The notes under the pieces: model-generated
What the model saw: only the letters and a program-made list of their open reading frames with translations
Told to the model about the DNA's origin: nothing
The model's database searches: none
Shown here: positions 16,003 through 54,394 of the stretch, in pieces
Position numbering within the stretch: position 1 is the first letter of the stretch
Layout: each line of letters opens with the position of its first letter
Source: an uncultured Candidatus Saccharibacteria bacterium
Lineage (GTDB): Bacteria; Patescibacteriota; Minisyncoccia; Phycocordibacterales; UBA9973
DNA length: 64,000 nucleotides
Assembly: GCA_964625065.1 (NCBI GenBank)
Contig: CAZUZL010000002.1
Coordinates: forward strand, 58,067 to 122,066
Direction of reading: 5' to 3'
Position numbers and translations under genes: made by a program

Positions 16003-16899
16003 TTAAGCTTTTGCTAGTTTTTGTTCAACTGCATTTCTGCATTCTGACGAACAACAAATAAGGTTTTCATCGGTACCTGAACATTCGTCGCAGGCTATGT
16101 AGTGGCGGTGACAACTTGTGTTAACACAGTCACGGTATATTTCAGACGATGCACCACAGTGGTAACATTTACCTATAACAGTGTGGTTTTCTGGACTGTC
16201 GAAATGCATAGTTTTACGTTTGTCGAAAACATATAAAGACCCTTTAAAGTTCTGCCCTGGGAATTGCGCCATGTACGAAACTATACCCCCGTCTAGTTGG
16301 TATACATCTTTGAAGCCTTCTTTCTTTAAAAAACCAGAAGCCTTTTCACAGCGTACACCACCGGTACATACAGTTAATACTGTTTTGTCTTTTAGGTCTT
16401 TTAGTTCGTCTATTTTTTCACGTAAGTCGCGGAAGTTTTTCAAACCTGGAAATATAGTACCGTCGAATTTACCAGACTCTAGTTCGTAGTCGTTACGCAT
16501 ATCGACAATGTAAAAGTCTTTACCTTCCTTATACCATTTATCTAGTTCATGTGGTGGCAGATGTGTACCAGTAAGTACGTTTGGGTTTACGTCGCCTTCT
16601 TCGCCTAGGTGTAATGAAACTATTTCTTTACGGACTTTAACAGACAATTTAGGAAAACAGTCCCCGTTACCTGGACTAAGTTTCCAGTGTACGTGTTTGT
16701 ACATACGTTGAGACTTCATCCATTCTACATATTTTTGTATTGCTTCGGTTGTACCTTCACCTGTACCGTTTATACCTTCCTCGGCAATTATGAAACGCCC
16801 CTTGATACCGAGTATTTCTAAAACAGCACGTTGACGCGCCATTTCTAATTGAGGGTTTTCTATCGGAACGTATTTGTAAAATAAAACTATTGTATGCAT
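16003..16899 (-). CDS. trhO: Rhodanese-domain tRNA uridine(34) hydroxylase (UPF0176/YceA family).
   Basis: 298 aa with N-terminal MHTIVLFYKY, a central rhodanese Cys loop (CTGGVRCE) and a C-terminal Cys cluster. Confidence 0.7.
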   Translation of the reverse strand: MHTIVLFYKYVPIENPQLEMARQRAVLEILGIKGRFIIAEEGINGTGEGTTEAIQKYVEWMKSQRMYKHVHWKLSPGNGDCFPKLSVKVRKEIVSLHLGEEGDVNPNVLTGTHLPPHELDKWYKEGKDFYIVDMRNDYELESGKFDGTIFPGLKNFRDLREKIDELKDLKDKTVLTVCTGGVRCEKASGFLKKEGFKDVYQLDGGIVSYMAQFPGQNFKGSLYVFDKRKTMHFDSPENHTVIGKCYHCGASSEIYRDCVNTSCHRHYIACDECSGTDENLICCSSECRNAVEQKLAKA

Positions 16900-16982
16900 A
16901 AAAAAATTAAATTGATTAAGTTTTGGTCGCGCCGAGTGGATAATTGCGCGACATGATTTTAAACTGAAATCACGTGTCTTAA

Positions 16983-17097
16983 AATCGGACCAAGGGCCTC
17001 CGTCTTATAGCGGCTAGCGAGGAGCGAATAAAAAAGTAATCTTTTTTATATCGTCCGAGCGAAGACGTTATATGTAATCATATCAGGACGGCGTTCT
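16983..17097 (-). pseudogene. Partial tRNA-Ile copy (anticodon arm through T-loop) interrupted by ~75 nt in the anticodon loop.
   Basis: aatcggaccaagggcctccgtcttat at 16983-17008 and atcaggacggcgttct at 17082-17097 duplicate segments of the adjacent tRNA but are separated by unrelated sequence. The D-arm and acceptor are absent. Confidence 0.5.
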
Positions 17098-17117
17098 TAA
17101 ATATATAGACCTTGGTG

Positions 17118-17189
17118 TGCGTGTACTTGGAATCGGACCAAGGGCCTCCGTCTTATCAGGACGGCGTTCTACCACTGAACTATACACGC
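17118..17189 (-). tRNA. tRNA-Ile (anticodon GAU).
   Basis: Hand-folded cloverleaf. Acceptor is GCGTGTA/TACACGC, D-arm GTTC-AGTGGTA-GAAC, anticodon stem CCGTC/GACGG with loop CTGATAA, T-arm CTTGG-TCCGATT-CCAAG. The T-loop has an unusual C at position 55. No encoded CCA. Confidence 0.7.
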
Positions 17190-17282
17190 AATATAGCCTT
17201 TGCACTATAGCAAAAAAAAGTGTTTTTAGCAAATAAATAGCATGGTAAAAACCCTACTGTTGTAGGGTTTTTACCATGCTAT

Positions 17283-18833
17283 TTATTTAGCGCAAAGTTT
17301 TGCATTCATATGGGCTAGAGTTTTTAGGTCTATTTTAGAAGTTTTAACTTCAGCTGAATTTAAACCTATTTCTGTACTGTACATTTTTTTGTAAGCTTTT
17401 ATTGCGTTTAGTGTTCTACTACCTACGAAACCTTGTATGTTTATGTGTGAACCAGTTTCTTGGTTTAGTAGCCACTGTATTGTTTTAACAACTTGTTTTT
17501 TATATAAATCTGTTTTAGTGAAAGCTTTGTAAACTGCAGGGCATGTAGCATTTTTTGTTGGTTTTATAGTAGTGTCATCTGTTTTTACTTTTTCAGCTTC
17601 AACTTTTTTAACTTCTACTGGTGGTATATACGAACCACCGCCACCACCACCACCTGAACTTAATATACCACCACTACTACCCCTAGATATATTACCTAAA
17701 ACTTCTGCTGAATCAGCTGTAAGCAGGTTTTGTTGTGTACCGTTAGCTGGTGTGTATGCTTGTACTATATAGTACGTGTTTGCTGTAACGTTTGGTATTG
17801 TTATTGTTGCACCAGAATTTCTAGCAACTGTACCTTCTAATGTACTGTATGGTCCGCCAGAAGTTGGACTTGAATAAATTTTATACGAACCTACAGATGT
17901 GTATTCAGCGGGTGTCCAACTAACTACCATATCTGTGCCAGAACGTGTTGCAGTTAAACCAGTTGGGGCAATGGTTTGTGTTGCAGACCAGTTTGCAGAA
18001 AACTTTGTGTCTGCAGCTGTGTCCTTCGTTGTAGAACTTGTTTGTAATGAGTTTTCAGCCAATGAACCGGCTGTTAACAAGCCAAACGAACTGAAGTCTG
18101 GTATGTCGCCGGTTAGTGCGTTTTGGTTTGCGTAAAACTCTACCAAACCAGAACTTGCTGACAAAGAAGGTATAGAACCTGTAAGTTGGTTTCTATCAAA
18201 ATATACATATTCTAAAGATGTATTTGTGCTAAGTGAAGGTATAGAACCTGTAAGCTGGTTGTCCCGCACATCAAACAGTGACAGTGATGTGTTTGTAGTA
18301 AGTGCAGGTATAGAACCGGTAAGTTGGTTTGTACCAACGAAAAATTGCGATAAATTTGTATTTGTTGTAAGTGAAGGTATAGAACCTGTAAGTTGGTTGT
18401 TATGTAAATCTAGCAACTGTAGTGCAGTGTTAGATGCCAAAGAAGGTATAGAACCTGAAAGACTGTTACTGTACGCATGAAACTGTGTAAGACTAGTTAA
18501 GTTTGAAATAGAACTAGGTATAGTACCTACAAGGTTGTTACTTGCTAAGCTAATAGTGGCCACATGTGTGCTTGAACGTGTTATACCATGCCATGTGTTT
18601 ATGTCAGAAACAGTGTCCCATGCGGTATGGTCTGTCCATGATGCACCAGCTGTGTCTGTGTACAAATCTTCTAATGCCTGACATTCTGCTTGAGATATGC
18701 CGCCTAGTGTTGTACGGTGTGCACCATTAGTACAGTCAACAGTACTAAATGCAGCATTTGCGTTTTGAATTTTTACTGTAAATAAAACAAAAAATATTAA
18801 AAAAAATGTGGCTGGTATGCGTATATGTTTCAT
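17283..18833 (-). CDS. Secreted multi-domain protein: plant-type leucine-rich repeats, FN3-like domain, poly-Gly linker and C-terminal peptidoglycan-binding-like domain.
   Basis: Signal peptide, then about 8 tandem LRRs (NQLTGSIPSLxTNTxL) encoded by ~66-nt DNA tandem repeats at 18190-18480. GGGGGGGS linker. The C-terminal ~90 aa resemble PG_binding_1 and the C-terminus of the 976-aa protein. Confidence 0.65.
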   Translation of the reverse strand: MKHIRIPATFFLIFFVLFTVKIQNANAAFSTVDCTNGAHRTTLGGISQAECQALEDLYTDTAGASWTDHTAWDTVSDINTWHGITRSSTHVATISLASNNLVGTIPSSISNLTSLTQFHAYSNSLSGSIPSLASNTALQLLDLHNNQLTGSIPSLTTNTNLSQFFVGTNQLTGSIPALTTNTSLSLFDVRDNQLTGSIPSLSTNTSLEYVYFDRNQLTGSIPSLSASSGLVEFYANQNALTGDIPDFSSFGLLTAGSLAENSLQTSSTTKDTAADTKFSANWSATQTIAPTGLTATRSGTDMVVSWTPAEYTSVGSYKIYSSPTSGGPYSTLEGTVARNSGATITIPNVTANTYYIVQAYTPANGTQQNLLTADSAEVLGNISRGSSGGILSSGGGGGGGSYIPPVEVKKVEAEKVKTDDTTIKPTKNATCPAVYKAFTKTDLYKKQVVKTIQWLLNQETGSHINIQGFVGSRTLNAIKAYKKMYSTEIGLNSAEVKTSKIDLKTLAHMNAKLCAK

Positions 18834-52210: not shown

Positions 52211-52509
52211 TGAATAGTACTAAGCCGGAAATTTATTTCCGGCTTTTTTATTTTATACACTATAACGGAATTTAACGGTCGTTAATTTCCGTTACCATTA
52301 CACACAAATAACAAAAACCACCTTTCGGTGGTTTTTGTAGAGGATACAAACTTTCTTTTGTTTCGTTCTGACCGGGACTTTCCCCGGCGTCAACATGGTT
52401 AAGGTCACAACATGCTTGGACCATTATGCACTCGATCGAGCTGCACAATATCGACACCATAAGTGTATATCTGGTTGAATAGATATAAACACGGTTTCAA
52501 ATTGAATTA

Positions 52510-54083
<1,574 letters not shown>

Positions 54084-54394
54084 ATATAAGAGGTAAATTT
54101 TAGTTTATCTCTTCGTAAAAAGAGACAAGATAAAGAATATTATTGTATATGTTGTTTGCACAAAGATGAATATATGTAAGGACCGTTTGACCGGCCTTTT
54201 ACCAGATATTCTACTTTGTTATTGTTTTGTCAAAGTACTTTTTACCTTTAGGGCACAAGGCATTTTAGCTCCCCCTGCCCTCAAAATAAAACCCCTATTC
54301 AAGAGGTAGAGAGTATTCTATACGAAGTAAAATATAAGTCAAGCGGTTAACCTAGACTTATAAATATGGTGTTAAACGCGCTTTCAATTTAAAA

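Follow-up and report, generated by a model that had tools for sequence, protein, structure and literature searches.

A split copy of tRNA-Ile(GAU) upstream of trhO, probably the dead outer shell of a nested tRNA gene, and the recurrence of such nests in CPR bacteria

Integrative elements of the P4/HP1 type use a tRNA gene as attB, with sublocations in the anticodon loop and the T loop, and replace the part of the gene that they displace. Bacterial group I introns occupy the anticodon loops of tRNA genes, as in cyanobacterial tRNA-Leu and tRNA-fMet, Azoarcus tRNA-Ile and Agrobacterium tRNA-Arg. Archaeal tRNA genes can be disrupted by non-canonical introns, or encoded as split tRNAs with complementary leader sequences, and bacterial tRNA genes were described in the same 2014 review as structurally uniform, with self-splicing introns as the sole notable exception (PMC4033280). 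Searches of the accessible full-text literature, subscription-only papers lying outside their reach, brought up no account of tRNA genes that are nested, or flanked by tRNA fragments, in bacteria of the candidate phyla radiation (CPR). The recurrent nested architecture of tRNA genes in CPR bacteria reported here, to which a small relic next to a tRNA-Ile gene drew attention, is apparently unreported.

The stretch of DNA analysed, referred to below as the window, is 64,000 nucleotides (64 kb) long. ARAGORN and Rfam/Infernal both place an intact tRNA-Ile(GAU) of 72 nt, with no encoded CCA, on its minus strand at 17118..17189 (Infernal 71 bits, E 1.6e-13), where a preliminary description made from the sequence had put it; this gene, read from 17189 to 17118, is the sole tRNA called in the window. 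A promoter-like site (TTGCTA, 17 nt, TG-TATAGT; 17204..17232, minus strand) adjoins it on the upstream side, and a perfect 27-nt inverted repeat of terminator-like look (17231..17288, no strand assigned) ends the upstream LRR-protein gene and forms the upstream border of the tRNA unit. The intact tRNA is the working copy, and translation relies on this promoter-proximal copy. The downstream neighbour, outside the element, is a gene for a TrhO/YceA-type rhodanese with UPF0176_N, Rhodanese and Rhodanese_C domains (16003..16899, minus strand), whose start at 16899 lies downstream of the split copy. An extra leader of ~46 nt (16926..16970, minus strand), absent from the two relatives L003 and L113 discussed below, contains an AT-rich palindrome and the GC hairpin that had already been pointed out (gtcgcgc...gcgcgac, 16926-16952); the hairpin exists, occurs once in the window and was not called terminator-like. 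As for the other RNA genes of the window, the 16S gene is unlinked from the 23S-5S genes, the 23S gene has an intron-like insert detected by the Intron_gpI model, and the RNase P RNA belongs to class A. The unlinked rRNA genes and the class of the RNase P RNA, together with the closest public locus and the named TrhO homologs described below, mark the window as part of a genome of CPR/Patescibacteria type.

The partial tRNA copy noted earlier on the 3' side of the intact gene is real. A repeat finder and a blastn-short search against the whole 64-kb window returned two collinear direct repeats of tRNA-Ile(GAU) in the same orientation, at most 210 nt from the tRNA, namely AGAACGCCGTCCTGATA (17/17 identical, E 1e-3) and ATAAGACGGAGGCCCTTGGTCCGATT (26/26, E 4.4e-9). 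Because the spacings from the tRNA to these repeats are 73 and 148 nt, a difference of 75 nt, the split copy has 75 extra nucleotides at the anticodon loop, in keeping with the ~75 nt originally claimed. They are made up of a 72-nt insert (17009..17080, minus strand) and an ATA duplicated at both junctions. No other copy of the insert was found in the 64-kb window by blastn-short.

The two pieces of the copy can be assigned to parts of the cloverleaf. A 20-nt spacer, caccaaggtctatatattta (17098..17117, minus strand), separates the intact tRNA from the 5' shell fragment (17081..17097, minus strand), which is 17/17 identical to linear positions 20-36 and covers the D-stem 3' strand, the anticodon-stem 5' strand and the loop as far as canonical A37. 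The 72-nt gene has no canonical position 17, so that linear position n (n >= 17) is canonical n+1, and the motif CCTGATA therefore ends at A37. The 3' shell fragment (16983..17008, minus strand) is 26/26 identical to linear positions 34-59, that is, the rest of the loop, the 3' strand of the anticodon stem, the variable loop, the 5' strand of the T-stem and the T loop. It runs on into a degenerate continuation (ttaag-acacgtg, 16971..16982, minus strand), which resembles the 3' strands of the T-stem and the acceptor, with 2 T-stem substitutions, 1 deletion and an altered end. The description of the copy as anticodon arm, variable loop and T-arm has to be widened, since the 5' piece also includes the 3' strand of the D-stem. 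Likewise, the D-arm and acceptor are not missing altogether, as had been stated; linear positions 1-19 alone are truly absent, and positions 60-72 are degenerate, the 3' strands of T-stem and acceptor persisting at 16982..16971.

ARAGORN called no second tRNA in intron mode at default thresholds, and hence no complete intron-containing tRNA of the kind that the preliminary description had proposed to look for; a lowered threshold gave spurious overlapping calls only, and Infernal found no second tRNA in 16500-17600 even at E<=10. With its insert removed, the split copy does not yield a complete cloverleaf, as positions 1-19 are absent and positions 60-72 degenerate. The missing second call, the absent positions and the mutated 3' end together mean that the window copy is not functional, and it is a relic that cannot be called as an intron-containing tRNA. 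The fold of fragment plus insert is of ordinary stability (z -0.38), and the fold of the whole leader reaches only z -2.3. At permissive thresholds, Rfam gave no match to any intron, ribozyme, T-box or leader family in the window region or in loci L002-L004.

The origin of the insert becomes apparent by comparison with the closest public locus, that of a metagenome-reconstructed Candidatus Nomurabacteria genome (L003), which shares about 88% identity with the window across 1.2 kb, trhO included. In L003, the promoter is followed by fragment A (positions 1-15), a 62-nt insert, fragment B (1-36), an arm X of 52 nt and a complete tRNA-Ile, and then by an arm X' of 105 nt, fragment C (34-72), 25 nt and trhO. 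The homologous insert in L003 hence keeps a complete tRNA-Ile, on a long leader/trailer stem, between the 5' and 3' halves of the tRNA. The promoter-like region of the window is 95.6% identical to the L003 sequence upstream of fragment A, and the 27-nt inverted repeat has its counterpart upstream of the L003 nest. The 5' shell fragment of the window aligns to fragment B, the stretch just before ATATAAC aligns to fragment B and the start of X, and from ATATAAC on the insert and the shell piece after it are about 91% identical (93/102) to X' plus fragment C. Since the window segments align in this way to B+X and to X'+C, the 72-nt 'intron' is the leftover of both arms of an L003-type cassette, a remnant from which the inner tRNA has been deleted. 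The deletion junction falls within or close to the motif TTCGCTCG(G/T)A, which is repeated in both arms, and its exact point is ambiguous because the arms are partly palindromic. The comparison with related genomes, suggested earlier as a search for an integrated element, thus uncovered a nested tRNA in L003 and no kb-scale element.

A third state is found in L113, a strain-level relative whose TrhO is 98% identical to that of the window. Here, the 3' part of an intact tRNA lies 25 nt before trhO, and the split copy is absent. The L113 contig opens within the tRNA, precisely with the first 31-mer to include tRNA position 37, as one would expect of a de Bruijn assembly if the 5' half occurs twice in the genome. 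The window, L003 and L113 are three different states of one locus. Synteny traced via TrhO homologs shows that the tRNA-trhO neighbourhood is kept in only one close relative, L113; TrhO homologs of 68% identity adjoin ATP synthase genes, and the named homologs come from Nomurabacteria and Parcubacteria.

Nests of this kind recur in CPR bacteria. When one genome of each species was scanned for the split pattern CGTCCTGATA-N58-88-TAAGACGGAGG, three CPR loci were returned, with the pattern spanning a nested structure in each. A metagenome scan with the intact anticodon arm CGCCGTCCTGATAAGACGGAGG yielded 102 loci, a sample that is biased because the search pattern required that arm to be intact; all analysable loci carry a CPR-type tRNA-Ile(GAU). 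In the viral collection, the anticodon-arm pattern matched only tRNA arrays of jumbo phages, which have no nests, and the 3'-half pattern matched nothing. Spliced alignment places shells beside 35 of the 102 tRNA-Ile(GAU) loci (~1/3), and when each tRNA is compared with its surrounding +-600 nt by blastn-short, 39/104 loci show extra tRNA fragments. At E<=1e-4, fragments flank 29/102 tRNA-Ile(GAU) genes vs 7/191 other tRNAs of the same loci (Fisher p 2e-9, only indicative, like the other p-values of this survey, since the loci are not phylogenetically independent). The other tRNAs concerned include tRNA-Ala(UGC), which has a full nest in L061. The order in L004 is 5' half, X, tRNA, X', 3' half; L002 has several nested layers, and up to three or four layers are seen (L025, L002, L048).

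We use 'nested tRNA cassette' as a descriptive class defined in this analysis. X is complementary to X' in 10 of 12 two-sided nests (0/300 shuffles as good, z -4.5 to -10.7), and the X/X' helix extends the acceptor stem outward. Such a leader/trailer helix occurs in 9/12 nested loci, compared with 3/56 loci without a shell (p 9e-7, again only indicative), and is a property of nests, not of tRNA-Ile precursors generally. An encoded CCA follows the cassette tRNA in 6/12 cases vs 11/57 (p 0.06); as this CCA belongs to the helix, it says nothing for or against an RNA intermediate. Breakpoints cluster in loops: 47 of 64 junctions touch one (42% expected), 33 of them being in the anticodon loop, with a second cluster in the T loop, and a short hairpin of variable sequence often adjoins one junction of a nest. 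By sequence, the arms fall into at least nine unrelated families, and within the roughly 830 kb of sequence retrieved they occur at tRNA loci only. The junctions are heterogeneous: those of the window, L003 and L004 have a duplicated TA or ATA, the GAAATAATTTT family has a clean U36|A37 cut without duplication, and no single known transposition chemistry fits both types. The window belongs to the class by its collinear fragments, broken in the anticodon loop, and by the homology of its insert to the L003 arms. No helix surrounds its intact tRNA, the flanks of which are unpaired (z +0.9). As its cassette is emptied and one-sided, the window represents a derived form, not an intact member.

The cassettes share with P4/HP1-type elements that tRNA-gene loops are targeted, that incoming DNA restores a working tRNA, and that displaced fragments stand as direct repeats. 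Unlike those elements, they are about 100-230 bp long and geneless, carry a whole tRNA rather than just its 3' part, and displace both halves of the old gene, one to each side, while base-pairing links the two flanks of the carried tRNA; their junctions lack a 6-8 bp overlap duplication, and no recombinase was found nearby. The likeness to disrupted archaeal tRNA genes lies in the interruption of D-, anticodon and T-loops, in complementary sequences beside the halves and in the presence of several interruptions per gene. However, the hosts are bacterial, no bulge-helix-bulge is evident by inspection, the insert holds a complete tRNA, an uninterrupted copy is always present, and the outer copies decay. 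Bacterial group I introns are likewise inserted in anticodon loops, and one cassette family inserts directly after U36, but the cassette inserts of 38-230 nt have no ribozyme core and do not end in G, and the window copy has no complete exons. Elements of the REPIN/MITE type are also short, non-coding and hairpin-forming, and the window, L003 and L004 may have a TA duplication in common with them; the cassettes differ from them in not being dispersed, in having complementary arms off the exact termini, and in carrying a tRNA as cargo. A MITE/IS-derived element was considered for the window and rejected, as the arms are confined to tRNA loci and the insert has no second copy in the window and no terminal inverted repeats, a TA/ATA duplication being possible.

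Outer shells can enclose foreign alleles. In L100, the inner acceptor is GGGCGCG/CGCGCCC and the outer one GGGCGAT/ATCGCCC, with 7/7 pairs; L048 has the same two acceptor alleles in reversed order, and L016 has another pair of inner and outer alleles. In two diverged lineages (L065/L082 and L019/L045), a tRNA-Ile with its arms sits in the anticodon loop of a tRNA-Thr; after in silico removal of the inserts, ARAGORN calls tRNA-Thr(GGU) and tRNA-Thr(CGU) (L065, L019). Moreover, the arm family TCCTCGATAA...TTATCGGGA surrounds tRNA-Ala in L061 and L023 and is found emptied in the tRNA-Ile shell of L016. The differing alleles, the tRNA-Thr hosts and the common arm family argue against simple local duplication, and also against spread purely by homologous recombination between tRNA-Ile copies.

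Other loci look like stages in the decay of nests. L053, L004 and L078 have their upstream region in common, but L053 has a plain tRNA, L004 a two-sided nest and L078 a nest with the 5' side only, the outcome that would be expected from deletion between direct tRNA repeats. The 38-nt insert gaaaatttttgctaaaattttccgctcacgaatcgcga, located at U36|A37 of the shell and common to L010, L055 and L100, retains only the outer ends of GAAATAATTTT-type arms, as would be expected from palindrome collapse. In L061, two identical [5' half + X] units stand in tandem.

Together, these data suggest that the split copy in the window is probably the dead outer shell of an earlier tRNA-Ile(GAU) copy, interrupted by a small protein-less cassette. 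A palindromic cassette carrying a tRNA would insert into the loop-coding DNA of a tRNA gene, and the hit would be tolerated because the cassette brings an intact tRNA of its own, a proposal that we term 'insert and rescue'. The intact inner copy could then be hit again, which would build up Russian-doll layers, while recombination between the direct tRNA repeats might generate one-sided forms and collapse of the palindromic arms might generate emptied forms such as that of the window. There, the middle of the cassette, including the tRNA, would have been lost, leaving the 5' fragment, 72 nt of arm remnants and the decaying 3' fragment. Both L003 and the window could be derived from a promoter-tRNA-trhO arrangement by loop insertion, repeat deletion and palindrome collapse. 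For the window, a first event may have been a D-loop cassette whose 5' side was deleted, which would have left the intact tRNA at the promoter together with the 20-nt spacer; caccaaggtctatatattta may accordingly be the trailer arm of this lost second cassette. The second event would be the cassette, now emptied, in the anticodon loop. The steps by which the intact tRNA came to lie upstream of the shell have no unique reconstruction, and other orders are possible.

Extended to the group as a whole, the model is more tentative. CPR bacteria may harbour protein-less palindromic cassettes of ~100-230 bp that carry a tRNA on a long stem and home into the loops of tRNA genes, the window being a decayed example; we consider this a possibility worth pursuing rather than the likely state of affairs. 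The cassette explanation, for the window as for the group, has against it the heterogeneous junctions, the tRNA-Thr cases, in which the cassette does not rescue its target, and the facts that the arms are not dispersed repeats and that the neighbouring genes are housekeeping genes. Nor did an enzyme, a circular intermediate or a donor form come to light.

The preliminary description had itself offered an att scar as one reading of the locus. On this explanation, integrative elements with a tyrosine or serine recombinase used the anticodon loop and the T loop as attB, carried a replacement part of the tRNA and were later deleted, so that short remnants stayed between the tRNA and the fragments displaced from it. 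The breakpoints do lie in these two loops. Williams reportedly named them in 2002 as the classical sublocations of integrases in tRNA genes. In the window, a direct repeat of part of the tRNA adjoins the intact gene, and both the window and L010 present an intact tRNA followed by a 5'-truncated copy; in L016, L017 and L102, only a 3' fragment lies downstream of the tRNA. The separation of a tRNA fragment from a tRNA gene by insertion of a mobile element is, moreover, an already known pattern, which speaks for the scar (PMC4033280). Nevertheless, Pfam identified no integrase or transposase among the nine proteins neighbouring the window locus, there is no kb-scale element near it, and just 20 nt and 72 nt of non-coding DNA, with no recombinase element, lie between the window repeats. 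The gene clusters enriched near nests comprise lineage-specific housekeeping genes and no integrase or recombinase. No repeat of a tRNA half lies more than 650 nt from its tRNA in about 100 loci. Displaced 5' halves are found upstream as often as 3' halves downstream, the flanks of inner tRNAs are mutually complementary, which two independent scars would not yield, and the junctions share 0-3 nt instead of an overlap of 6-8 bp. The two pieces in the window, 72 nt apart, do not form one contiguous block of identity, only ATA being common. What survives of the earlier suggestion is that something did target the tRNA and left the insert as its remnant; this something is a cassette of ~100-230 bp without genes, and with a whole tRNA in the relatives. 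A scar as integrases leave it, with duplication of the 3' half only across a kb-scale element and an integrase nearby, is not what the locus contains, and we consider this explanation unlikely.

The main alternative is that outer copies are expressed and that their inserts are removed from the RNA. The interrupted genes would then be real, inserts including those that bear a tRNA would be excised so that one transcript gives two tRNAs, and the window copy would be a degenerate member of an intron-bearing family. The outer exons are indeed ordered and often intact despite several inserts (L016, L036, L065), and the recovery of tRNA-Thr by ARAGORN in L065 and L019 is in line with this idea. The Thr outer exons are 81% identical between the two lineages, the flanks being unalignable, and the lineages have opposite bases in pair 30:40 (C:G versus G:C). 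Identity of outer exons to the inner tRNA often reaches 100%, or the exons stay tRNA-like across lineages, which could reflect selection on the outer gene, as opposed to a dead relic. The complementary arms are also reminiscent of the leader pairing of split tRNAs, and insert positions in the D-, anticodon and T-loops resemble those of archaeal tRNA introns (PMC4033280). However, there is no group I core (no match to Intron_gpI, RF00028, in 16500-17600 at E<=10 or in L002-L004 at E<=1), and inspection by hand of the window, L003, L004, L035 and L078 revealed no bulge-helix-bulge with a 4-bp helix and two 3-nt bulges at the junctions. Splicing would be superfluous, since the tRNA concerned always exists as an intact copy too. 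Many shells lack anticodon-loop nucleotides (L055, L036) or whole arms, the window copy being without positions 1-19 and the T arm of L019 being broken. Once RNase P/Z had released the inner tRNA, the arms still attached to the exons would need to be removed as well, and we know of no bacterial pathway that does this. Finally, the window copy is absent from L113 despite the 98% identity in TrhO. We therefore regard excision from RNA as quite improbable. The preliminary suggestion of a decayed intron-containing paralogue can be retained for a decayed paralogue with an insertion in its anticodon loop, but not for a classical intron, given that no second tRNA, group I core or bulge-helix-bulge was found.

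Could the nests have arisen by purely local rearrangement, that is, by tandem duplication or slippage together with random deletions and insertions, without any mobile cassette? Direct repeats of this type do recombine, as the tandem units of L061 indicate, and close relatives exhibit three structural states. On the other hand, the breakpoints are non-random, the arms are complementary and, in the loci examined, bear no relation to the outer flanks, the inner allele differs from the outer one, tRNA-Ile is found inside tRNA-Thr in L065 and L019, and at least nine arm families are unrelated to one another. All this makes a purely local origin very doubtful.

Hardly credible is a role of the split copy as a tRNA-mimicking regulatory leader of trhO, the gene for a tRNA-modifying enzyme; the copy does share its strand with the tRNA and trhO and sits between the former and the start codon of the latter, an interval in which no terminator-like site was called, but it is absent in L113 with its 98% identical TrhO, differs in structure in L003 and matches no Rfam leader family, the TrhO homologs of 68% identity have other neighbours, this lack of conservation contradicting a conserved leader, and tRNA-Ile(GAU), having G34, is not a substrate for hydroxylation of U34.

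The dead shell left by a cassette remains our preferred reading of the window, and this relic is of value for bringing to light a tRNA-gene architecture that recurs in CPR bacteria. The shells break short-read assemblies, as in L113, where the contig starts inside the tRNA, and they may mislead the annotation of tRNAs in CPR genomes. If the nested layout holds true, a large and little-studied radiation routinely embeds its tRNA genes in fragments of its own or other tRNA genes. It would also provide a testable link to archaea and a concrete system for how disrupted and split tRNA genes arise. A protein-less cassette that homes into tRNA genes, building up Russian-doll tRNA genes as it does so, would amount to a selfish element of a natural 'disrupt-and-rescue' kind. 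Its persistence strategy, if true, would be new, in that a geneless element survives in an essential single-copy gene by bringing a spare copy, the logic that underlies engineered cleave-and-rescue gene drives.

In two lineages of related loci, L065 with L082 and L019 with L045, a tRNA-Thr gene is interrupted in its anticodon loop by a tRNA-Ile(GAU) together with its complementary leader and trailer arms (in L065, the nest occupies about 2380-2620 on the minus strand). When the inserts are deleted in silico, ARAGORN calls the outer gene as tRNA-Thr(GGU) in L065 and as tRNA-Thr(CGU) in L019. The outer tRNA-Thr exons of one lineage are 81% identical to those of the other, and the flanks are unalignable. 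The nested layout also occurs at tRNA-Ala(UGC), in locus L061, with the break between G35 and C36; there, the unit of 5' half plus arm is present in two identical tandem copies. Its arm family, TCCCGAT...ATCGNGGA TCCTCGATAA...TTATCGGGA, recurs within the tRNA-Ile shell of L016, where it has been emptied of its inner tRNA.

The outer copies of L078, L016 and L065 carry a GC-rich hairpin of the family CC[CT]GCC[CT]G...C[AG]GGC[GA]GG. Its insertion point is always the D-loop/D-stem boundary, after GGT[AT]A, in three differing contexts (two tRNA-Ile shells and one outer tRNA-Thr gene). Because the same point was hit in all three, comparison of the loci suggests that the hairpin is a small insert with site specificity.

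In the window, a perfect 27-nt inverted repeat follows the LRR-protein gene (17231-17288). It is retained in the closest relative, L003 (1-58), with a single position changed in both arms, a G to A paired with a C to T. Judged from sequence, this matched change is the pattern expected of a terminator hairpin under maintenance.

The window's tRNA-Ile(GAU) is solitary, about 35 kb from the rRNA genes, which lie on the minus strand at 52500-54087 (16S) and 62743-64000 (23S-5S). These are themselves unlinked: 8.6 kb separates the 5S gene from the 16S gene, which lies downstream of it on their shared strand, and no tRNA is located between the 16S and 23S-5S genes. In the 23S gene, 1020 nt cover 629 model positions, and its 3' part contains a group-I-intron-like insert (63283-63540, minus strand; RF00028, 36.9 bits, E 2.6e-7, a score under the gathering threshold). 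The long hairpin directly downstream of the 5S gene (62601-62736) was flagged solely by matches to microRNA precursors, which are spurious; it is probably an operon terminator or processing stem.

In L113, a relative with a 98%-identical TrhO, the Logan contig begins at tRNA linear position 7 (L113 1-66), and this start coincides with the first 31-mer that contains position 37. If the genome repeats the 5' half of the tRNA, this is the break point to be expected. Assemblies built from short reads may thus be broken up at nested tRNA loci.
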